A stretch of DNA of 62,600 nucleotides, filler included, from Stramenopiles sp. TOSAG23-2 (taxonomy: Eukaryota), in NCBI GenBank assembly GCA_900128395.1. It is 6 parts of 6 records of this genome, joined end to end, with 100 filler letters (N's around TTAATTAATTAA, not from the genome) between each part and the next. Parts side by side here need not be neighbours in the genome. Positions count along the whole stretch, not along the records: positions 1 to 10,364 come from LT650022.1; 5 more parts are not named here. One strand, given 5' to 3'. Shown one piece after another: positions 5,323 to 30,534 of the stretch. Made by a program: the position numbers and the translations under genes. The notes beneath the pieces are model-generated. The model searched no databases, had not been told where the DNA came from, and worked only from the letters and a program-made list of their open reading frames with translations. Each line of letters starts with the position of its first letter. Within the stretch, counting starts at the first letter, position 1.

Positions 5323-6294
5323 ATGGCACGTTTAACAAGACCAAAAAATAATCAAGTATTTCAGATACATAGTATTTTATCAGCAATATTAGGCCTTTTA
5401 ATATTCATTTTTCCACATTCCTGTGGTGTCTTCTTTTTAGAAGGTTCGACGAGAAATGGTATTGAATCAGAGACTGGGCATTTGTTAATACGTATGTATG
5501 GTATATTAAATATTGCTAATGCTTGGATTTTAAATATAACATCGAAAAAAGCAACAGCGCTTACGAAGAATTGTTTAATATATGGTTATGCATTTTGCTA
5601 TGTATTTTCATTTTTAGAAATATGCCATAGATCTGCCCGTCAAGATACCATGAATTTTGGTTTCTTTGGAATTATCTTCATGTTATTCTATTTGGCATAT
5701 GCAGTTGTATACTGTTGGATATGCTTTACTTCGGAAGATGAAGAGGATGTAGCTGAATCAACAAGTAATCCTGTATTTACAAGATATGACGGTGGTTTAA
5801 GTTTAGATGGGATATTTTTAATTGCTGCTACTGGTTATGGTTTAATAGGGGTTACCGGGGTACTTATGCCAAAAGCTTATAAGCTTATTTTCAACACTGG
5901 CTCGTTAGGGGTAGGTTTAGAAAATGGTGCAGCAATTTGCGTAGTACGACTTTATAGTTTCCTTCTATGTGCAACTGGTTGGTTTATCTTTATTATTGGA
6001 AGAACACCAGGGCAAAAAAATCGTTTAGCATTTGTTCAAGCTTTATGCATATATTCATTAATGGCAGTTGTTACGATAGTGCAGAAAAATCAAGATGAGA
6101 CTGGTTCAATCTTTGGTACAATGGCATGCTTAGTTTGGGGATTATTTCATGTTGCTATGGCTGTTGCATGTGGGTATTATTGGAAAAAAATATCAGATGC
6201 ATCAGCAAGTAATAATGATGGCACTGGTGCAAGTAGTAGTTTAAGCGGTAACAATGATGATGAAGTTGCTAATGATAATACACCACTTGTATAA
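5323..6294 (+). CDS. Multi-pass membrane protein with two tandem ~4-TM TP53I11-like repeats
   Basis: About 8 hydrophobic segments. Internal repeat LLIRMYGILNIANAWI / CVVRLYSFLLCATGWF. Confidence 0.55.
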   Translation: MARLTRPKNNQVFQIHSILSAILGLLIFIFPHSCGVFFLEGSTRNGIESETGHLLIRMYGILNIANAWILNITSKKATALTKNCLIYGYAFCYVFSFLEICHRSARQDTMNFGFFGIIFMLFYLAYAVVYCWICFTSEDEEDVAESTSNPVFTRYDGGLSLDGIFLIAATGYGLIGVTGVLMPKAYKLIFNTGSLGVGLENGAAICVVRLYSFLLCATGWFIFIIGRTPGQKNRLAFVQALCIYSLMAVVTIVQKNQDETGSIFGTMACLVWGLFHVAMAVACGYYWKKISDASASNNDGTGASSSLSGNNDDEVANDNTPLV

Positions 6295-6682
6295 AAAGAG
6301 ATGTAAAATTACATGTGAAGGTATTTTCAATGTATGGATTGATGTGTTTCAAAGTATGACGAAAAGTGCATGTTGCAATTTGGTTTTATGTAGCAAAAGA
6401 AAAAGATTCTACATATATATATATATAGAGAGAGAGAGAGAATACCATTGAAGGTAAATGGATGGTATCAACTTGCAGTTGATGAAAAACGGACATCATA
6501 GGAAGGCGGAGAATAAATTGTACCAGGGTACAAGTCATTAGACCACTCTTGCCAAATGCACATTTGAAAGCAAAACGATTATTATACGTAATATAATTCG
6601 TATATACATGTATATATATATTATATATATTTTTACAAAGGTACTTTTTCAACATGATGCACACACACACACGACACACTCT

Positions 6683-8779
6683 CTACGAATTTGCACGATT
6701 ATAACTGACTTTTGATTTATTTTGTTTTGAATTTTTTTTCGCCATCTCTTTCATATGTTTTTTTTGTTTACTTTGAGCATGCTTTCCACTTTTATCTACC
6801 GCTCTAGCAGTTGTACCGTCACTACTGCTTTGCATCACAACATCATGTATGACATGATTCCATATTAATTTTGGTAATACAGCAATTTCATCCTCTGTGT
6901 CATCATTTTCCCCTTTTCCTTCTACTTGTCCTTCAGCGCCTTTCTTTACTAGCTCACCTTCTACACCTTCAACTTTAGCAACTGTATTTTTTATCTTCAT
7001 ATTTAAAATGACATCTGCTTTTTTCCAATCATCTTTTACAGCTTGATTAAAAATATCGACTAAGGTATTTGCTAATAATTTACAGCTACCATCTTCCGCT
7101 TCAATATTCAAATCTTCAATTAATACTTCATCTAAAAACGGCTCAATTTCATCAGGATAAATATCTCCATTTTTCTTTCCATTTTTCTTACGCTCCCATC
7201 TTTCTAAAAAATTAAATTCTAAATCATCGAATAATTTATCAACTTTTTGTATAGTATCATGACCACCAGTATCATGAGCCAATGCAAATTGAACGATAGG
7301 CCATTCATAAATCAATTTTGCCAATACGTTGCTAAAACGACCAAACGTTTGCTTTGCAAGATATTTCTTCTCATTGTAAACAAAATATGCCCATAAAGAT
7401 GATTGTACACCAGCTTTAAAATCCGTTGGTGCATCACCAACACCACCATGAGATATATCGTATCCATACGATTCTGATAATTCATTGCACCATTCCACAA
7501 ATTCACGATTGGTAAATTCAAATTTATGGTTTGCATATCGCACTTGATCATTATGCATATTATATACTGAATTAAAAGATTTATTCACTGTAGTTACTAT
7601 CAATATTTTTGGACGAATAACATCAAAAACAAAATCAGTAAATTCAGATAATTTATCTTTTGACAACGTATGAACATACTCTGGAATGACTAGTGTTTCC
7701 GAGGAGCAATTTTTTACGATACTATATTCTTCAGCATTAAAAGTAGTAGTTGTAGTAGTACTGCTATTTTTCTTTTTCATATCATTATTATTTACGGTAC
7801 TATCCTTTTTTCCATCATCTGCTTTGATAAATATATTATCATCTATGGCTTCCATCTGTTTAGCATCAACATGGTAACTTGATATGTTCAATGCAACTTT
7901 TCTTGGTCGTATTGTGGACGTAGCATTACCAAAGGTACCTTTTTTTAACGTTGATATAGAATCATTTAACGATGACAAATCATTATCAATAATACACAAT
8001 TGTTGAACAATTGGAGAATTATCACGTATTGATTCTAATAATAAATTACCTTCGTTCGTGCCAATTATACAAACCCTTTTTGCTTTGAACTTGCGTAATA
8101 GACTTGATATTAATGATATTCTTAATTTGCGAACGCTCTTTTCTGCATCAATATGTACCGCTGACATAACTGCTGACATAGATGTTGTAGAATTATTATT
8201 ATTATTATTATTGTTATTGTTACCATTTTTACTATTATTGTTATTATTTTTGCGTGTATTTGCAACAACTTTCCACTCGTCACCTTGATCATCAACTTCG
8301 ATATTATCATTTCTTTTGTTGTTTGTATCTTCTAATTGTACATTTGATATTATTTGTTTGTTAACTGTATTATTTTTTTCTGCTGTTGGTGGTGGTGATA
8401 TTGTCGTCGGTTTGTTGCTGCTGATACCGTTTTCTTTTTTAATATTAACATTATTAGTAGTAGTAGCAGTAGTAGTAGTATTTTTTACATTAACATTCAC
8501 CTTCATGGTATCTTCCTTATCACCATCAATTTCTATTTGCTTTTTTTCTAACTCCAATTTATGCTTATTTAATAAGTCAGATTCAGCCTTCCTATTTTCA
8601 GCCTTTAATTCGCTGATTGCCAGTTTCTTTTGCTTACCCTTTAAACCACGAGTAGCCTCTTTTCTTTTCTTTTCAATTGTTACCTTTAATGCTTTTACTT
8701 CATTTCTATGTCGTAATTTAACTTGATGCAACGTCTCATTATTATTTTCTTCCATTTTATTTGTAGCAATTGATGTCAT
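6683..8779 (-). CDS. Fusion protein: Otu2/OTUD6B-like N-terminal coiled coil + degenerate Hen1-type methyltransferase + Tsr2 domain
   Basis: N-term LRHRNEVKALK...LLNKHKLELE. Middle KAKRVCIIGTNEGNLL, FVFDVIRPKILIVTTVNKSFN, RYANHKFEFTNREFVEWC, YGYDISHGGVG. C-term LIYEWPIVQFAL..TGG..DEIEPFLDEVLIEDLNIEAEDGS. One uninterrupted 698-aa ORF. Confidence 0.75.
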   Translation of the reverse strand: MTSIATNKMEENNNETLHQVKLRHRNEVKALKVTIEKKRKEATRGLKGKQKKLAISELKAENRKAESDLLNKHKLELEKKQIEIDGDKEDTMKVNVNVKNTTTTATTTNNVNIKKENGISSNKPTTISPPPTAEKNNTVNKQIISNVQLEDTNNKRNDNIEVDDQGDEWKVVANTRKNNNNNSKNGNNNNNNNNNNSTTSMSAVMSAVHIDAEKSVRKLRISLISSLLRKFKAKRVCIIGTNEGNLLLESIRDNSPIVQQLCIIDNDLSSLNDSISTLKKGTFGNATSTIRPRKVALNISSYHVDAKQMEAIDDNIFIKADDGKKDSTVNNNDMKKKNSSTTTTTTFNAEEYSIVKNCSSETLVIPEYVHTLSKDKLSEFTDFVFDVIRPKILIVTTVNKSFNSVYNMHNDQVRYANHKFEFTNREFVEWCNELSESYGYDISHGGVGDAPTDFKAGVQSSLWAYFVYNEKKYLAKQTFGRFSNVLAKLIYEWPIVQFALAHDTGGHDTIQKVDKLFDDLEFNFLERWERKKNGKKNGDIYPDEIEPFLDEVLIEDLNIEAEDGSCKLLANTLVDIFNQAVKDDWKKADVILNMKIKNTVAKVEGVEGELVKKGAEGQVEGKGENDDTEDEIAVLPKLIWNHVIHDVVMQSSSDGTTARAVDKSGKHAQSKQKKHMKEMAKKNSKQNKSKVSYNRANS

Positions 8780-15672: not shown

Positions 15673-18600
15673 TTATGAATTAATTTTAGCATCATTTTCT
15701 TGCGCATCTTGAAGTTTCTTTTTAGTTATTGAAATACCACCCGTCAATGCAGCAAGTTCTTTGCCTAACGCTCTTGCCTCTGCCAACGCAGCTTCTTCGG
15801 CTTCATCATCATCTTCATCAAATGCTTTGTTTACTCTTTCATTGGCTTCTGCAATCTTAGCTTTCAACTCATCGATTTTTGCCTGGTCTATTTCTGCCTC
15901 TACCTCACTCTCCATCTTCTTTTTCAGTGCTTTTCTTTCTTTCTTCAATTCTTTTGCTTTTGCACGAGCGGCATTTGTTGCATCTTCATTTCCAGCTTCG
16001 TTAGCTTCGGTCATTTCTGTTTTTGCCGATTTTATTGCTTGATCTAATTTGGCTAATTTTTCTTGATCGCTAACTTCTTCTTCTTTTGGTTTTTCAGGAA
16101 CAAAAGATAAATCGACAGCTTTCAATTCTCCACTGTTTAATTTTGCTAACGTTTCTTTTTGCAGGTGAACTTGATAATTATACCCAATTTTCTCCATTTC
16201 AGTAATAATTTCGCTTAAACTAGCTACATCACCTTTCCAACGAGCAAGTTCTGCTTTAAGAACTAGAACATCCAATGGTAGACAATCGATTTCAACAGCA
16301 TATTCTACAGTATTCAACAAGTTCTCAAACGTTTTTCCAAACGGTCGGTCTTCTAATGCCAACGTTATCTTCGCTGCATAAGCTTGCAGGCCACATCTGA
16401 AAGTGCCAGGGTTTATCTTTGCATACATTTCAATTTGCTGTCGAAAGGCAAACAAAGCTTTTCCAAAAATTGGATCTGCGTCTGGTTCCCCTTTTATGCG
16501 TTCAAAAATCATTAAACTTGGTAATAGGACAAAAGCCTGGTTGCATTCTAGATGGGGATCACCTGGTCCCAAAGTGCCATTGATACCCTTACTAGAAAAT
16601 CCATATTGCATTTTACAAAAATTCATCGCTTTCTCCCAATTACCTTCAAGGCATTCAACAAAGTTTATAAATACAGACATAAAAAATTTGAAAAGATTAC
16701 CAGGAAATGAACGTGTAGTATTCGGGAATAATTTTCCCATATTCATTAAGGTATTAAACATCGATTTGGCGCCTTTGATATCCAATGATATAGTACATGA
16801 ATGCATTTTACAAAAATGCACTAGTTGATACCCGAATGCCTTTTGATCTTCCAACGCTTCTGAATCATAACGCACTTTTTCCATGCGATCAATATAATGT
16901 TTGTACATCTTTACATCTCCCAGGGAGAGTAATGCAAAGGATAGTTGCCTTAAATGACCAATTTGATCGTTTGCATACTTAAGATTACCATCGATCATAC
17001 CAAAACTTTCTTCTAGTCGCGACAATGATTTTTTAACCATCTCAGGGGCAATAAAAATATACCATTGATATGGCGATCTGACTGCTCCCGCTCGATATTG
17101 GATCTTCAACCGTTTGTTTGAAGATAATAGTGTCATTCTTCGGTATATCCTACGCACAGCATCAGGATCATCTAGTGTCAATTTCCCTCTGTTTGCACCG
17201 GCCCAATTAGTGTGAAGTATATACCACAGATCCACATTGTTTTGTTTATATGCACTGATAAGGGCATAATACCGATAGTATTCGCTTATTTCAACGACGT
17301 CACTAACAGAAAATCCGTACTTCTCTTTCATCTGCACCCTAAGATTGAAATATAAGCTTGTTGCCAAAGATGCACTAATTAATAATTTTGCTCGATCTAT
17401 GTCGTCAAACGTTCCGTCTACTTTTGTCGGAATATCATCAAATTCCCCATACTCTCGCATCATCATTTCGACAGAAGCTTTTGACCGTTTCTGAGGAACA
17501 AAGGTAGGGTCATTCAGTTTGTGACAGGCATCCCACATTAATTTACTAGCAGTAATACCATCACCATACGAATTTCGAGCAAATCCTAAAAGAGCCATCC
17601 AGTACGGTATGCGATTTGATCCACTCCCTTTACTATACGCAATAGCCTGACTTAACGAATTCACACATTCTTTAAATGCACCAATTTCTAAGGCTTTTAA
17701 TGCCGCATTTTGTAACATATCGCAACCACGATCAACTTCACCACTACGTAACCAATGAAATGCTAAAACATCCATTTCAAATTTTATAGAAGAATTTTCA
17801 TATTCTTCAACAATTGCACGATGTACTTGCCGCCGTTGTGAATCCAACATCAAGTTATGCGCGCACTCAGTTATAATTTGATGAGTAAATTTCATCATTT
17901 TGCTAACTGATTCACCAGTCACTGCAACTACTAATCCACGTGCTGCTAACACTTCAAGTATTGCTTGTAAATGATTAAGATCTTGCGATGATAAAAATTG
18001 TGGTGCGACATTCATTAAATTTTCTTGGCGAAATTCGAATCCGAAACATGAACATACTTTAATCAAAACTTTAGCTTCGTCATCTAGACTATCAATTCGT
18101 TCCATCACAGTATCCATAATTGAACTTGGAAACTTAATAGAGTTGATGTCACCAGTGAAAAAAATATTACCATCATCATCTTTTTTTACCATATCTTTTT
18201 CTTTTAACCAATTAGTCATGGAGGATAGATACATGGGAATACCTCCAGCTTTTTGGTTGAGTAATTTGACAAATTCATCGCTGACTTTTTCACTGCCAAC
18301 ATCCAACGTCTTTGCTATTAAAGTGCGCATCGTATCATGGTCCATTGTGCCTAGTTCCATTAACGTAATATCACTGTTTTCTTTTAAAGCCGCTAAAATA
18401 CGAGAAAATTTGATCCGATCATCATCTTCGAGCCATTCATCTTCCAACGTTTCTCCTTCATCTTGTAATGCTTTATCTGCGCCACCAGCTTTTTGTTGTG
18501 AAATCATGTTGGGTGGGCGAGTTACAATCATGACGATGCTACCAATGCTTAATTGTGGTAAAACCATCTGCAGCATGATCCATGATTGACTGTCAATCCA

Positions 18601-20580
18601 ATGTGCATCTTCAAACACAAATATTGTATTTTCCAATGATTGGAATATTTTTAGACATACTTTAGCAGCCCGTCCTTCTAGTCGACCATGCTCCAGCTGC
18701 GTGCCTGATGCATCGCGTTTTGCCAATGTTGGCAATATAATACCAAGTGCATTAATATCATCTTCATCCAATTGGTGGTTAAATTTTAACGCAAGAACCT
18801 CTCCATATGATGGTGATGTTGATAAATTTGCGGCAGCAGTCAAAATTTGTCCAAAGGCAAAATATGGAGTTTGCTTCTCAATTGCAGATCCAGTACCCAT
18901 TAGGAAACGAACGTTGTCATCAATTGCCTCGCGCTGTAGTTGCCATACAATTGCACTTTTTCCCATACCTGCTAGACCTTCCAAAATGTAGGCACTACCT
19001 TTTTTTTCTTCCAACATAGCTTTCAAACCAGCTCGAAGTTTTGTCATTTCGCCTTCACGGCCTACAAAAACGCCTTTATCCAATTCATCTTGATTTTTAT
19101 GACGTACAGCTCCTGCTCTTCTTCCATAAGGACGCAATGCTCGAAACATTCCATCTTTACCTTTTACCTCAATAGGATTTGTCATGTCGTATCCAATATA
19201 ATTTTGTGTTGCATTGTAAACACGTTCTGACACTAATATTTTTCCCAAATCAGCTTTGCCCATCAATCGAGCAGCCATATTTGTCTCTGCGCCCATTACA
19301 ACAAAATCATTACGAGAAGGGTGACCACAAATACCAGTAAAACATTGTCCCATCGATATCCCAACTTTGCAAGGGTTGCTTAATGATGAACATGCAGAGG
19401 ACGCCTCTAACGAAAACAACACTGCTCTCAAAGCATCCACTTCGGTAATCTGGGTTATGCCGAAACATGCAATCATTGTACAGCCTTTATCTTCAAATAA
19501 AAAATCACGCATTTGTCCTTCAAATTTTGCAAGTACAGAACGAAGTGCAGAATATACATCATTTAAGTTCGACTCATTTACTCCATCTGAAGTCACCGAT
19601 TCCTTTGCAACTCCAGGTAATGAAAGAAAAACTACTACAACACGTCTTCTTTCGTTTTCAAATTGAGCATTACCACCTTTGGCACGTACTATTGGTGGAA
19701 TGTATGATGATGCAATTTCGGGGCATGAAGAAAGCTCAGCCGTGTACGTATCAATCATACTACCACGCTTAGACATTCGCCTTTGTGTTTCCTCCACATC
19801 TTCTTCATCATCAAGGATATCCTCTGTTTTTGTATCCCGCGTTATTGTTAAGCCGCCATATGCCTTGACAGTACCTGGCTTTGCTCGATCTAAAAGCCCT
19901 GCAGCAATTTTTATTGGCCTTCCAGCAATTAGAAACCATCTTTGTTTAATTCGTTCAAATTCAGCACGTGACATAATACTCTGTTCATCTTTTTTCATTC
20001 TTTGTCTAGCGCTATTAGACCGTGGTGAAGAGCCACGTAATTCCTTTAAATGAATACGTTGCAGAGGCGCACTCGCAGCTAGTCCACCATGCAAATCGAG
20101 ATCGGGGCTTGTATCTTTGATAACTTTTAACATTTCAAGTGCACATTCTTTTGCACGTTCAAATGATTTCTCATCCCCCCTATCTTCTGGGTCTGACGGT
20201 ATTGCAGAAAACGTACAAATTAAACAATCGCCAGCTATTTTTACGACTTCTCCTTCATATCGATGAGTTACATTTACTAAGACTGAAATTGCAGCAGACA
20301 TTTGCGATGCAAATTCTTCCGCTCCTTTCGCATCACCATGTTCTGCGGTTAACTTTTCGCCTAAGGCAGTAAAACCTGAAATATCTGCTAATAATAAACA
20401 TGCTTCGACCAGTTTTTTACTTGGGGCATCAGGCAAAGCACCTTTCGCTGCAATTTCCAAACGAACAGAGCGAGGGATCAAACCAGCTCTTTTTGGCGAA
20501 ATAAATGTTTGAGCCGCCTCGGGATTGACTTTACTTTCGTTGCCAGGCAAATCAAGCTCAACTGCATATTTTTCAGCCAT
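15673..20580 (-). CDS. ADCY10: Soluble adenylyl cyclase type 10-like protein (two class III cyclase domains + STAND P-loop NTPase + helical repeats + coiled coil)
   Basis: LLADISGFTALGE, VVKIAGDCLI, FLFEDKGCT, GAETNMAARLM, Walker A EGLAGMGKS, Walker B FVFEDAHWID. First ATG at 20580. Confidence 0.88.
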   Translation of the reverse strand: MAEKYAVELDLPGNESKVNPEAAQTFISPKRAGLIPRSVRLEIAAKGALPDAPSKKLVEACLLLADISGFTALGEKLTAEHGDAKGAEEFASQMSAAISVLVNVTHRYEGEVVKIAGDCLICTFSAIPSDPEDRGDEKSFERAKECALEMLKVIKDTSPDLDLHGGLAASAPLQRIHLKELRGSSPRSNSARQRMKKDEQSIMSRAEFERIKQRWFLIAGRPIKIAAGLLDRAKPGTVKAYGGLTITRDTKTEDILDDEEDVEETQRRMSKRGSMIDTYTAELSSCPEIASSYIPPIVRAKGGNAQFENERRRVVVVFLSLPGVAKESVTSDGVNESNLNDVYSALRSVLAKFEGQMRDFLFEDKGCTMIACFGITQITEVDALRAVLFSLEASSACSSLSNPCKVGISMGQCFTGICGHPSRNDFVVMGAETNMAARLMGKADLGKILVSERVYNATQNYIGYDMTNPIEVKGKDGMFRALRPYGRRAGAVRHKNQDELDKGVFVGREGEMTKLRAGLKAMLEEKKGSAYILEGLAGMGKSAIVWQLQREAIDDNVRFLMGTGSAIEKQTPYFAFGQILTAAANLSTSPSYGEVLALKFNHQLDEDDINALGIILPTLAKRDASGTQLEHGRLEGRAAKVCLKIFQSLENTIFVFEDAHWIDSQSWIMLQMVLPQLSIGSIVMIVTRPPNMISQQKAGGADKALQDEGETLEDEWLEDDDRIKFSRILAALKENSDITLMELGTMDHDTMRTLIAKTLDVGSEKVSDEFVKLLNQKAGGIPMYLSSMTNWLKEKDMVKKDDDGNIFFTGDINSIKFPSSIMDTVMERIDSLDDEAKVLIKVCSCFGFEFRQENLMNVAPQFLSSQDLNHLQAILEVLAARGLVVAVTGESVSKMMKFTHQIITECAHNLMLDSQRRQVHRAIVEEYENSSIKFEMDVLAFHWLRSGEVDRGCDMLQNAALKALEIGAFKECVNSLSQAIAYSKGSGSNRIPYWMALLGFARNSYGDGITASKLMWDACHKLNDPTFVPQKRSKASVEMMMREYGEFDDIPTKVDGTFDDIDRAKLLISASLATSLYFNLRVQMKEKYGFSVSDVVEISEYYRYYALISAYKQNNVDLWYILHTNWAGANRGKLTLDDPDAVRRIYRRMTLLSSNKRLKIQYRAGAVRSPYQWYIFIAPEMVKKSLSRLEESFGMIDGNLKYANDQIGHLRQLSFALLSLGDVKMYKHYIDRMEKVRYDSEALEDQKAFGYQLVHFCKMHSCTISLDIKGAKSMFNTLMNMGKLFPNTTRSFPGNLFKFFMSVFINFVECLEGNWEKAMNFCKMQYGFSSKGINGTLGPGDPHLECNQAFVLLPSLMIFERIKGEPDADPIFGKALFAFRQQIEMYAKINPGTFRCGLQAYAAKITLALEDRPFGKTFENLLNTVEYAVEIDCLPLDVLVLKAELARWKGDVASLSEIITEMEKIGYNYQVHLQKETLAKLNSGELKAVDLSFVPEKPKEEEVSDQEKLAKLDQAIKSAKTEMTEANEAGNEDATNAARAKAKELKKERKALKKKMESEVEAEIDQAKIDELKAKIAEANERVNKAFDEDDDEAEEAALAEARALGKELAALTGGISITKKKLQDAQENDAKINS

Positions 20581-26077: not shown

Positions 26078-27471
26078 ATGTCCCATTACAATAAGAAAGC
26101 GGCATTGACAGGGGATGATACGCAGGAAAGTGCATCGTATCGACGTGTATTAGGTACCGATATTGGTTCATTGGAACATCCATATTTCTCCACATCCGTA
26201 CGTAAATTTGAAACGAAACATGGAAAACAAGCTGCAATGCCAAAGTTTGCAGCATTGATGAAAAAAAATGAATGGAGGTTGCAATATCATATAATAATAT
26301 TGGATTGGTTCATAAATCACATGGTAATTATGATAAAGCATTAGAATATTATAATAAAGGATTAGATATTCGTAAAAATAAATTCGGTAAAGATCATCCT
26401 GATGTTGCAATATCATATAATAATATTGGATTGGTTTATTATGAACAAGGTAATTATGATAAAGCATTAGAATATCATAATAAATCATTAGATATTCGTT
26501 TGAATAAATTAGGTAAAGATCATCCTGATGTTGCATCATCATATAATAATATTGGATTGGTTCAAGATGAACAAGGTAATTATGATAAAGCATTAGAATA
26601 TTATTATAAAGCATTAGATATTCGTATGAATAAATTAGGTAAAGATCATCCTGATGTTGCAGAGTCATATAATAATATTGGATTGGTTCAAGATGAACAA
26701 GGTAATTATGATAAAGCATTAGAATATCATAATAAATCATTAGATATTCGTTTGAATAAATTAGGTAAAGATCATCCTGATGTTGCAGAGTCATATAATA
26801 ATATTGGTACAGTTCATGATGAACAAGATAAATATGATGAAGCATTAGAATATTATAATAAAGCATTAGATATTCGTTTGAATAAATTAGGTAAAGATCA
26901 TCCTGATGTTGCAGAGTCATATAATAATATAGATACAGTTCATGATGAACAAGATAAATATGATGAAGCATTAGAATATTATAATAAAGCATTAGATATT
27001 CGTATGAATAAATTAGGTAAAGATCATCCTGATGTTGCAGAGTCATATAATAATATTGGATTAATTTACAGTAACCAAGGTAAATATGATGAAGCATTAG
27101 AATATTATAATAAATCATTAGATATTCATATGAATAAATTTGGTAAAGATCATCCTGATGTTGCAATATCATATGGTAATATTGGTACAGTTTATTATGA
27201 GCAAAGTAATTATGATGAAGCATTAGAATATTATAATAAAGCATTAGATATTCGTATGAATAAATTAGGTAAAGATCATCCTGATGTTGCAATATCGTAT
27301 AATAATATTGGTGCGGTTCATGATGAACAAGGTAATTATGATAAAGCATTAGAATATTATAATAAAGCATTCATCATTTTTAAGATCAAATTAGGAACAA
27401 CTCATAATCGTACAATTGATACATTAAAAAAGGTATTAAAATTAAGAAAGTGTGTTTTAAAAAAAAAGTGA
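26078..27471 (+). CDS. TPR protein with nine 42-aa kinesin-light-chain-type repeats; the N-terminal ~65 aa are joined by an apparent 1-nt frameshift near 26273
   Basis: 126-bp units HPDVA.SYNNIG.V..EQG.YD.ALEYYNKALDIR. Adding one G in TGGAG gives KKNEW-EVAISYNNIG. Confidence 0.8.
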
Positions 27472-28152: not shown

Positions 28153-30534
28153 TCATAGCAACATCGTTGCATCCAATTCCCCATCACAAATTGGTGGGCG
28201 TGCACTTATTGTTTGTTCTTGTTGTACACCAACTACACCTTCTGTCAACAATGCATTCCGTGCTCGTTCCACAAAAGCAAGTACAGGTTCTTGACGACTT
28301 CTTCTCCCTACATCCTTTTCCACTTTTTCAAATACACGCGTTGCTCTCAATAAATAAGCACGCATACTTTCTTTCCGTCGACGTTTTGGTAAAAGATCAA
28401 CATCTTTACCTTTATTAAAACCATATTCTTCTTCTTCTCCATCTGATACATTATTATTATTATTATCATTATTATTATTATTACCATTATCGTTTTCATT
28501 ATTATTATTATTATTATTATTATTACGTTCTCCAACACCAGCAGAACGAACACGGCGTTTTGTAGAGGTAGAGGTACTACTATTGCTACCGCCATATTTC
28601 TTACGTCGTTTCATTTTCTTTTCTCTTATTCCATTTGCTGCTGATATTTCCATACGTCTACGTGCTTCTTCTTCAATTCTTAATTGTTTCTCTAATTTCA
28701 ACTTTGCTTTTACCTCTTGTTTACGTCTTTTTCTCATTTTTTCTTTCTTTTTTTTCAATAAATTTTGCTTTATCTCCTCTGCAACACGCTTTTGTTTTTT
28801 TGCCATTTCCACTTTTTTCAATGCATCTGCTTCTTTTTGCTGTAATATCTTTAATTTTTCTTCTTCCTTCTTCATACGTGATACTTCTAACAACCGTTGG
28901 CGTCTACGATATGCTTCTTCTTTTGCTCTACGTTCCATTTCCAATTGAAGCTGATATTCCGCTTCGAATTGTTGGATCTGTCGTAGTTTTTCCTCTTCTG
29001 CTAAGACTTTCTTCAACTCTTCTTTCTTTGCTGCTTTCTTGCGAATGTTCTCCCGACGTTTTTTCTCTTGTTCTTTACGTTTCTCTTTTTGTTTCTTCTT
29101 CCTTTCCTCTTCTTCTTTTGCTAATTTCAATTGTTCCTGCTTTTCTGCGTGTTTTTTTTTCTTTTCGATTTCTAAAGATCGACGCAACTTTTTGCGCATT
29201 TCAAACATACCATCTTTAAATCTTTTTTCACGTTCTTGTTTTTCTTTCTCTTTTTTCATTTCCATTTGTTTTTCATATTGGAGTTGGATTTCATCTTCTT
29301 TTTTCTTTTTTTTATCATATATTTTAGCTCGTTCACGAATTTTTTCTAACCGTTTTTTTTCAATCTCGGCAACACGTAATAATCCATTTACTTTCAAATC
29401 AACAGATGAATCATTTGGTTTTTGTTGTTTTAATCGTTTTAAACCTCGAATTACATTTACAACACCGGATGCCGTAGTGGTAGATACAGATGGTGGTGGT
29501 GGTGGTGGAAGATCCGAGTTGTCGCTACTCCTATTGCAGTTGCTATCGCTATTATTATTATTATTATCATTGCTATGCGTAGTACTTTTTTGTTTGATTA
29601 TTGGTGAGCAGTTATCACTGACATTACTATGTGTAATACTTCCCGTTAAAAATAACTGGAAGCCATTACCTTTGTTATTATTGTCGCATTCGTCGTCTTC
29701 TTCTTCGCTATCATCAACTTCTTCTTCTTCTTCTACTACTACGACCTTGTTGGCAATTACTTTTACTATGATATCTTCCAAAATTTCATTTATTACACGT
29801 CTTCGTGTTTCTTCTTCAATTCGTAATTGGTTTTCCGCTTCTAACTTGGCTTCTTTTGCTAATTTAATTTCTAACTTTTGCTTTCGCTTGATATTTTGTC
29901 GGACAATATAACCACGAAATAATTTCTGCATAGATAATGCTCCCCATAGTTTACGACATAAAGAAATTTGACGTTGATGCATTGCTTCACGAACCCAATA
30001 TTGAATTTTCTTTGCAGCATCTAGACGTTTTAATTTATAATGTTTATAATAATGACGATATTGACGTTGGATCATAATAGCAGCAAATGTTCTTAATTGT
30101 ACAGCACGCACAGTCTTTCGTGTTTTTAACACCCGTTTTGCGATGTGCATGCGATAATTGTTTTGTATTATCAAGGCTGATTTATATAGTAAGAACCTCT
30201 TTTTCCTTGAATCAATTCTTTTTTGTCGTCTTTCACGTTCAACAGCCCTTTTTTTCAATTCATTTTTTACACGTTCCACTTCTTCTTCTAATAACTGTAC
30301 ATTTCTGTCACGTTCATTTAATGCTTGCTTCTTTTTTTCTTGCCTCTCTTCTAACTTTCTTTTATATGTAGCAGCATCTAACGTAGTATTATTGAAAAAT
30401 CGTCCTTGTAAATTACTTGTAAACCGGTTGGAATGTACGTTGGATGAGCGTACATTTGATCCACTTGTTTGCATGTTTACTATCCCCCTGGAATATCTTG
30501 TAGGGGATTCCATCCTCCTATTTTCTTTGGACAT
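28153..30534 (-). CDS. IQ-motif (calmodulin-binding) and charged coiled-coil protein
   Basis: IIQNNYRMH, MIQRQYRHY, KIQYWVR, MQKLFRGYIVR followed by long E/K/R-rich helices. Confidence 0.75.
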   Translation of the reverse strand: MSKENRRMESPTRYSRGIVNMQTSGSNVRSSNVHSNRFTSNLQGRFFNNTTLDAATYKRKLEERQEKKKQALNERDRNVQLLEEEVERVKNELKKRAVERERRQKRIDSRKKRFLLYKSALIIQNNYRMHIAKRVLKTRKTVRAVQLRTFAAIMIQRQYRHYYKHYKLKRLDAAKKIQYWVREAMHQRQISLCRKLWGALSMQKLFRGYIVRQNIKRKQKLEIKLAKEAKLEAENQLRIEEETRRRVINEILEDIIVKVIANKVVVVEEEEEVDDSEEEDDECDNNNKGNGFQLFLTGSITHSNVSDNCSPIIKQKSTTHSNDNNNNNSDSNCNRSSDNSDLPPPPPPSVSTTTASGVVNVIRGLKRLKQQKPNDSSVDLKVNGLLRVAEIEKKRLEKIRERAKIYDKKKKKEDEIQLQYEKQMEMKKEKEKQEREKRFKDGMFEMRKKLRRSLEIEKKKKHAEKQEQLKLAKEEEERKKKQKEKRKEQEKKRRENIRKKAAKKEELKKVLAEEEKLRQIQQFEAEYQLQLEMERRAKEEAYRRRQRLLEVSRMKKEEEKLKILQQKEADALKKVEMAKKQKRVAEEIKQNLLKKKKEKMRKRRKQEVKAKLKLEKQLRIEEEARRRMEISAANGIREKKMKRRKKYGGSNSSTSTSTKRRVRSAGVGERNNNNNNNNNENDNGNNNNNDNNNNNVSDGEEEEYGFNKGKDVDLLPKRRRKESMRAYLLRATRVFEKVEKDVGRRSRQEPVLAFVERARNALLTEGVVGVQQEQTISARPPICDGELDATMLL

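Follow-up and report, generated by a model that had tools for sequence, protein, structure and literature searches.

The ribosomal protein eS26 sits beside the 3′ end of the 18S ribosomal RNA (rRNA) in the 40S subunit. In yeast, the chaperone Tsr2 is reported to deliver eS26 to pre-40S subunits (PMC6131548; PMC4161973) and, under stress, to remove and re-insert it on mature ribosomes (PMC8880767). Its N-terminal domain, Tsr2-N, consists of six helices, and its acidic tail holds eS26 free of RNA (PMC6131548). A deubiquitinase, Otu2, also binds this subunit; its N-terminal domain confers specificity for 40S over 80S particles, and it is found on pre-40S subunits as well (PMC10175282). The Hen1/HENMT1 enzymes are RNA 3′-end 2′-O-methyltransferases whose S-adenosylmethionine (SAM) motifs read VADLGCG and GVDI (PMC10781085). 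Here we describe a gene that joins relatives of Tsr2 and Hen1, together with a candidate Otu2-like helical hairpin, in one polypeptide. It lies at 6683..8779 on the minus strand of a 62,600-nucleotide stretch of DNA from Stramenopiles sp. TOSAG23-2 (the window), as an intron-less open reading frame (ORF) of 698 amino acids plus stop codon. Its first ATG is at 8779 and its stop at 6683–6685, and the surrounding stop-to-stop frame extends only to 8809.

From N- to C-terminus, the protein contains a helical hairpin, a linker, a Hen1-like domain and a Tsr2 domain, and it ends in an acidic segment followed by a basic tail. The modules are individually known; what is new is their combination and the probable Hen1-derived pseudoenzyme. 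We searched the 563 six-frame pieces of the window with a hidden Markov model (HMM) from 143 non-fused Hen1-type homologues and with another from stand-alone Tsr2-type proteins, and the 698-residue ORF was the sole match of both (E = 1.1e-36 and 1.7e-30), which on these scores is well beyond chance. We give a probability of roughly 55% to the reading that the protein is a chaperone of eS26, anchored on pre-40S or free 40S subunits and equipped with a non-catalytic, Hen1-derived binding module. An initial interpretation from the DNA alone (the sequence-only reading) had outlined the same three modules and built its functional model on the binding and methylation of RNA 3′ ends by Hen1; the outline stands, while the methylation part finds no support. 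Absent from it were two points developed below, a complete Tsr2 of the stand-alone type with a conserved basic tail, and the confinement of the fusion to a narrow clade.

A Tsr2-type protein in the C-terminal half

The Tsr2 domain occupies residues 469–593 (7001..7375, minus strand). The Pfam family PF10273 (WGG) matches residues 482–570 across profile positions 1–79 of 80, with 45.5 bits where the cut-off is 26.8 (E = 1e-11), and it exceeds its threshold in three of three orthologues tested (42–44 bits). The Tsr2-like segment of the sequence-only reading is upheld by this match, and the strings quoted for it are in place (WPIVQFAL at 493–500, TGG at 504–506, DEIEPFL at 543–549 and EDGS at 562–565). 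An AlphaFold2 (AF2) model places six helices here (470–491, 494–502, 509–532, 542–555, 565–581 and 586–593), with a predicted local distance difference test (pLDDT) score of 92–97; the likeness to yeast Tsr2-N is one of helix count. The model has no flexible linker at the boundary with the preceding domain, as the last Hen1 strand (459–468) leads into the first Tsr2 helix, and the Hen1-like and Tsr2 domains are probably one rigid unit.

The domain is followed by a variable acidic segment (residues 594–639; 6863..7000, minus strand) and by a conserved basic C-terminal tail (residues 640–698; 6686..6862, minus strand). The acidic segment has a net charge of −4, and −8 to −16 in orthologues, and stands where Tsr2 has its acidic tail; the basic tail has a net charge of +9 and a predicted helix at 666–697. 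A single BLASTP alignment runs from 475 to 696 of P0001 and from 35 to 264 of P0035, a stand-alone Tsr2-type protein, with 30% identity (E = 8e-26), and covers both the acidic segment and the basic tail. Because the C-terminal half is collinear with P0035 through these two regions, residues ~470–698 are, judged by this alignment, a complete Tsr2-type protein of one environmental subfamily, beyond a mere domain. A second stand-alone protein, P0066, shares the basic tail. This tail is unseen in the yeast Tsr2 chain 6g03 (156 residues) and, to our knowledge, absent from full-length yeast and human Tsr2. A word search of shorter proteins with residues 470–698 returned 8 matches among 170 candidates, all of them fragments of the same family (61–100% identity); as it depends on 5-residue words in common and overlooked both P0035 and P0066, this result carries little weight.

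Does this half still bind eS26? In the yeast complex, E61, D64, E87, D95 and E96 make charged contacts to the C-terminal segment of eS26, and mutating the D64-W65-I66 triad weakens binding (PMC6131548). The invariant residues D514, E544, E555, D556 and E562-D563-G564-S565 align with yeast D64, E86, D95, E96 and EDDS, in an alignment that is itself weak. Several observations weigh against a retained eS26 function: yeast Tsr2 is a weak sequence match among PDB entries (E = 0.07–0.13), the triad Trp (W65) is replaced by Lys, and the WGG motif reads TGG. I66 is Leu here and E61 is Gln. Together with the tail unseen in 6g03, the loss of W65 and the TGG variant would suit a scaffold unrelated to eS26, its WGG domain re-purposed for some other basic ligand, for example in a small-RNA or ribonucleoprotein role inherited from the HENMT1 parent. 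We consider such a scaffold possible, at about one chance in a handful, since TGG and the tail also occur in the stand-alone P0035 (265 residues) and P0066 (269 residues), both above the Pfam threshold, and so look like lineage features, while the acidic contact positions are invariant and P0049 joins two WGG domains to a RIO-kinase domain, again in a 40S-maturation context.

The architecture of P0049 is shared by P0186. In these environmental proteins (729 and 718 residues), a pair of WGG/Tsr2 domains in tandem (108.9 bits) is combined with a UVR motif and the beginning of a RIO-kinase domain, and they constitute a second case of Tsr2 fused to a late 40S-maturation factor.

Origin and active site of the Hen1-like domain

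Residues 199–468 (7376..8185, minus strand) have a Rossmann methyltransferase fold of the Hen1/HENMT1 type with a degenerate SAM motif I and metal site, and include a lineage-specific low-complexity insert (residues 321–348; nucleotides 7736–7819, minus strand). In phmmer searches of the PDB, the protein matches bacterial Hen1 (3jwg, 3jwi, 3jwh and 3jwj; E = 1.2e-15 to 2e-13), human HENMT1 (5wy0, E = 5.8e-10; 4xcx, ~6e-10) and plant HEN1 (3htx, 1.2e-6), and a family profile lifts the Hen1 matches to ~3e-18. The bacterial Hen1 equivalog TIGR04074 of NCBIfam scores 89 bits (E = 2.3e-25), below its cut-off of 340, with only the last ~100 profile positions aligning well. When the AF2 model, whose pLDDT averages 73 but exceeds 90 within the domains, is searched against the PDB with Foldseek, the ten best matches are all Hen1 structures (E = 9e-11 to 3e-9), with a target-normalised TM-score of 0.73–0.83 except for 3htx, where full-length plant HEN1 has 779 residues and the value, normalised by target length, is 0.22. 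Because the alignment behind the AF2 model held Hen1 homologues, this structural match is expected and adds no independent weight. These residues are related to Hen1 by sequence and fold, as the sequence-only reading had proposed on the strength of strings that are indeed present (RPKILIVTTVN at 389–399, NHKFEF at 417–422, WC..SESYGY at 430–440 and GVG at 446–448).

The domain is of eukaryotic type. We built a FastTree tree from 117 of 147 rows, after dropping the 30 with less than 70% coverage. The fused clade (support 0.998) is nested in a 71-leaf group of non-bacterial-type proteins (support 0.898), and none of the 22 leaves that have the C-terminal-domain architecture of bacteria falls within that group. 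The named top matches are protist transcriptome proteins, and an IRPR stretch aligns with human HENMT1. On this phylogeny, the domain descends from a eukaryotic HENMT1-type RNA 3′-end 2′-O-methyltransferase. Queries of the ESM Atlas with residues 199–698 found small-RNA 2′-O-methyltransferases as the nearest clusters, all with scores below 0.9 and to be read as leads only, and no nearby cluster pairing WGG with a methyltransferase family.

We compared the active site across 143 Hen1-type homologues from an exhaustive search and the four fused lineages. In SAM motif I (V/L-x-D-x-G-C-G), the Asp present in 105 of 108 homologues is Ile in all four lineages, and the Cys present in 95 of 109 is T, T, G and A; the first Gly (109/109) is retained. 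The motif II (G-V-D) Asp, which contacts the SAM ribose and is conserved in 103 of 112 homologues, reads D, D, G and G. The metal ligands E796, E799, H800 and H860 of the plant enzyme correspond to human E132, E135, H136 and H181 (PMC10781085). Two of these four are replaced in every fused lineage: the second Glu (139/139 homologues) by H, H, Q and Q, and the first His (137/139) by T, T, S and C. The first Glu (134/137) and the last His (143/143) are retained in all four, as E367 and H418. Generic methyltransferase Pfam models match none of the four fused proteins, whereas the canonical relatives P0033 and P0085 match several. Catalysis is unlikely because all four lineages lack the motif I Asp and, in the metal tetrad, both the second Glu and the first His, and we regard the domain as very probably a pseudoenzyme that no longer methylates.

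These losses leave the 3′-end methylation of the sequence-only reading without support; the fullest form of that reading is an active Hen1-type enzyme, or a 3′-end reader of 18S rRNA or small RNAs, perhaps 2′-O-methylating, coupled to eS26 loading. That form now appears improbable, at odds of around one in ten. It would draw on the proximity of eS26 to the 18S 3′ end, on the retained E367 and H418, on the His at the second Glu position of the window lineage, which could still bind metal, and on the Hen1-specific C-terminal block, where R414, H418, E421, F427, W430, Y440 and G446–G448 keep family-invariant positions. The window protein also keeps the motif II Asp, as do two of the four lineages, and has Asn at the third motif I position, as in 6 of 109 homologues; this lineage may therefore still bind SAM, which counts against a purely non-catalytic domain. 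Set against these are the replacement, in every fused lineage, of the motif I Asp, of the second Glu and of the first His, which is both a metal ligand and the proposed base, the Gly at motif II in two, the lack of any match to generic SAM-methyltransferase Pfam models, and the long stem branch of the fused clade (0.91 substitutions per site, compared with a median depth of 1.55). Recognition of a 3′ end through the canonical metal site is doubtful on the same residues.

One fused lineage (L003 228–2198, P0004) keeps the family-typical Pro in TTPN. This Pro is Val (TTVN) in the window protein and in the remaining lineages, and the Hen1 motifs therefore decayed stepwise.

The N-terminal hairpin and a proposed role on the 40S subunit

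We now consider how the protein might reach its subunit. Residues 17–93 (8501..8731, minus strand) form a predicted basic α-helical hairpin, a candidate Otu2-like element for docking on the 40S. Its helices span 17–43 and 48/49–93/94, the net charge over residues 15–93 is +8, and pLDDT is 92–96 in two independent AF2 predictions. The string ETLHQVKLRHRNEVKALK, from which an Otu2-like coil had been proposed at the outset, begins at residue 15 (~nucleotide 8737). The invariant R23-H24-x-x-E27 resembles an RHR-x-E motif that, we assume, opens helix 1 of Otu2 and OTUD6B. We aligned the hairpin model structurally (VIA-align) with 48,161 PDB representatives, and chain x of the Otu2-bound, ubiquitinated 40S (8c83_x) ranked 20th (Z = 7.7), superposing model residues 17–84 on chain residues 13–72 with a root-mean-square deviation of 1.5 Å over 60 residues. 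Among the 50 matches listed, it has the lowest deviation and the highest identity (25%, the others 3–17%). A rank of 20 is meaningful here because Otu2 had been named beforehand. In Otu2, the α1-α2 hairpin (residues 14–69) inserts in an rRNA pocket formed by the h7-h8 loop, h9 with expansion segment ES3a, and h44 with ES12 (PMC10175282); the pocket lies at the 40S foot and is accessible only on free 40S and pre-40S subunits.

Other observations weigh against the Otu2 link. The Z score of 7.7 falls in the tool's unspecific range for helical models (below ~13), and in 8c83 the hairpin coordinates themselves derive from an AlphaFold model (PMC10175282). Neither a phmmer search with residues 1–100 nor a six-sequence N-terminal profile (A5) has any PDB match at E ≤ 10, and Otu2 is absent from the 10–11 PDB matches, at the same limit, of the whole protein and of profiles A1 and A4. 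A word search with residues 1–95 among proteins shorter than 383 residues returned four same-family fragments from 59 candidates, none with an OTU domain; Foldseek with the hairpin model has no match at E ≤ 0.001, its best being APLP2 E2 (E = 1.3); and the ESM Atlas on residues 1–95 reaches a top score of 0.89 with unnamed clusters. The OTU catalytic domain (PF02338), expected from the start to be missing, is unmatched in the whole protein at E ≤ 10. The structural hint for an Otu2-like coil stands, while the sequence searches for it came back empty: the Otu2-like identity of the hairpin is weakly supported, and we put its homology to the Otu2 α1-α2 hairpin at about even odds.

A Thr/Asn-rich, low-complexity linker (residues 94–198; 8186..8500, minus strand), predicted to be disordered (pLDDT 26–45), connects the hairpin to the Hen1-like domain. 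Otu2 has a basic helix, α4, that inserts into ES6e; its counterpart would fall in this disordered region, where W169 is invariant and a basic stretch follows it in the orthologues only. A canonical, active-looking Hen1-type protein of 279 residues, P0085, has an N-terminus (E-E-E-W-E-V..RKK) that resembles residues ~165–180 of the fused family, in which acidic residues precede W169 and a basic run comes after it, upstream of the Hen1-like domain. The W169 motif may have been inherited with the methyltransferase parent.

The reading we prefer, a tethered eS26 chaperone, assembles these modules as follows. A lineage-specific escortin of the Tsr2 type would have gained two N-terminal additions. 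Its Tsr2 half would hold the basic C-terminal segment of eS26 through the acidic surface D514, E544, E555 and D556, as yeast Tsr2 does, and the hairpin would dock the protein on free or immature 40S subunits, at the Otu2-type 18S rRNA pocket of the foot. The disordered linker of ~105 residues would be long enough for the Hen1-Tsr2 unit to get to the eS26 site on the platform. The probably inactive Hen1 domain would persist as an extra binding or scaffolding contact, to RNA or protein, with the 18S 3′ end as an attractive guess for the ligand, and the basic tail is possibly a nuclear-localisation or rRNA-contact element. Delivery of eS26, or its extraction and re-insertion in the manner of Tsr2, would then take place on the subunit itself. 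A subunit-tethered Tsr2 fits both delivery and stress-time exchange by analogy with yeast, and a link to the loading of eS26 on the 40S, or to its release there, may reasonably be supposed.

The proposal has consequences of different reach. Gene fusions often signal functional partnership, and here one polypeptide unites an eS26 chaperone, a descendant of an RNA 3′-end enzyme and a candidate Otu2-type anchor for the 40S foot. If the tether is real, it suggests that the free subunit can be where Tsr2-type delivery or exchange of eS26 is organised, and that factors of the 40S in general, beyond one deubiquitinase, may dock at the site of the Otu2 hairpin. More speculatively, the presumably inactive Hen1 domain, joined rigidly to Tsr2 and anchored at the subunit foot by an Otu2-type hairpin, might read a free RNA 3′ end, sense the mature 18S end after cleavage at site D and license the insertion or removal of eS26. 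We hold this to be a long shot; were it true, the state of rRNA processing would control when the chaperone hands over its client. The domain would also extend to Hen1 descendants a growing set of pseudo-methyltransferases that serve as binding modules.

Gene integrity, distribution and known systems

The 698-residue ORF is one gene and no chimeric assembly, a concern raised by the sequence-only reading itself. An independent DNA contig (run X3, record 30) spans 6640–8179, and an RNA-library contig (X16, record 16) spans 7145–7607, crossing the Hen1/Tsr2 junction at 7375/7376; no joints or introns were seen in the contigs of other runs aligned to the ORF. Parts of the ORF uncovered by RNA contigs (7658–8239 in X15 and X16; 8046 onwards in X19) were not counted as evidence. 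The complete ORF recurs on metagenome contigs L001 and L002 (100% and 99% identity), and diverged full-length single ORFs are found in L003 (656 residues, 61%) and L006 (666 residues, 34%); in all, four or more diverged lineages (34–71% identity) encode the fusion as a single ORF. A word-based search of 5.8 billion proteins found five relatives among 7,295 candidates, all with the Tsr2 Pfam domain and the full-length ones having 600–700 residues; the relatives form four clusters, on contigs of up to 62 kb. The ORF is not a read-through artefact, because its frame stays open across barely conserved linkers. An artefact, whether a chimera or two or three adjacent genes read through as one, is extremely improbable given the independent full-length ORFs, an open frame in lineages as little as 34–45% identical, and the RNA contig across a junction that lacks a linker. 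Two observations would suit it: an Asn-rich repeat at 8180–8253, skipped as such by the tool, is bridged by no single aligned contig, and the N-terminal (P0180) and C-terminal (P0028) pieces are called separately on one 93,257-base contig of a relative. P0028 starts with unrelated residues, and the split calls suggest that in that relative the gene has a frameshift or an intron, or was miscalled.

Conservation follows the modules. We calculated mean pairwise identity and invariant positions across the four lineages. The Tsr2 domain is the most conserved region (0.61; 53 of 125 positions invariant), followed by the hairpin (0.55; 29 of 79), the C-terminal tail (0.50; 17 of 59) and the two halves of the Hen1-like domain (0.46 and 0.49). 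Identity falls to 0.25 in the acidic segment, 0.18 in the linker (2 of 105 positions invariant) and 0.10 in the low-complexity insert. Measured this way, purifying selection acts on all four modules and exempts the linkers.

The fusion is rare. Among 1.84 billion representative proteins, 913 match at E ≤ 0.001 and only three at E ≤ 1e-30, all three from the fused family; of the 150 matches listed, those outside the family align with one of the two parts, Hen1 or Tsr2. Seven of eleven metagenome loci are real relatives. The other four (L008–L011, GC-rich) were dropped: they share a pattern of 29–30 residues only, which in L008 lies inside an unrelated long ORF, and the remaining three were rejected by match length. 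The fusion is confined to a narrow clade of a few uncultured marine lineages. We found no description of a Tsr2-methyltransferase fusion in the literature searched, and the early impression that the architecture is undescribed agrees with this and with its rarity.

The window around the gene is AT-rich, with a GC fraction of about 0.25–0.41, and is packed with mostly intron-less eukaryotic genes, including those for a proteasome alpha subunit, an Nfu/NifU protein, a flagellar PapD/HYDIN-like protein and an ankyrin protein. It is present in marine metagenomes and metatranscriptomes from 13 studies, with at least part of it in 20 of the 24 runs listed, six of them RNA. We therefore take the organism to be an uncultured marine flagellate. 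The convergent neighbour of the fusion gene encodes a multi-pass membrane protein with no Pfam family (5323–6294, plus strand), and this neighbour is conserved, in the same convergent downstream position, in the 61%-identity lineage (L003 2434–2970, minus strand). Between the two convergent genes of the window, ~110–140 bases at 6450–6590 have very high summed contig depth in all four runs aligned here. The depth reaches 6,240 in DNA run X3, where the gene itself has ~19, and 263–414 in RNA runs. Many contigs terminate at 6480 and 6586, and the element is single-copy in the window. It has no transfer RNA, no phage match and no Rfam match better than E = 3.9; its minus strand folds slightly better than shuffled sequences (z = −1.98). 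A small RNA, or an element that is conserved or present in many copies, could account for it. Elsewhere, a 1,635-residue ORF (15673–20580, minus strand) combines an adenylate/guanylate cyclase catalytic domain (E = 5.6e-18) with an AAA_16 ATPase (E = 9.3e-16), and long ORFs overlap on opposite strands at 26168–27471 (400 residues minus, 399 plus) and 28153–30534 (793 minus, 288 plus).

Three known systems frame the protein. Like Otu2/OTUD6B (8c83), it begins at its extreme N-terminus with a basic two-helix hairpin, here predicted, and continues with a flexible linker; it differs in having no OTU domain, no sequence similarity detectable by HMMER and no recognisable equivalent of α3 or α4, apart from the loosely basic stretch past W169. 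With Hen1/HENMT1 (3jwg, 3jwh, 5wy0, 4xcx and 3htx), it shares the Rossmann fold and the Hen1-specific helices, the R-x-x-x-H-x-F/W-E...F..W...Y block, TT-x-N-x-x-F-N and GVG, whereas the fused family replaces the Pro of TTPN, the His and Asp of RHxDH and the Arg of WTR, and is fused to Tsr2; its closest Hen1 relatives are eukaryotic-type proteins. The likeness to yeast and human Tsr2 (6g03 and 6g04) comprises the Pfam match, six helices, equivalents of D64, E86, D95 and E96, and the acidic segment. In contrast to Tsr2, the window protein carries ~470 extra N-terminal residues (the hairpin, the linker and the Hen1-like domain), reads TGG for WGG and Lys for W65, and adds a basic tail that it shares only with a few stand-alone environmental Tsr2-type proteins.

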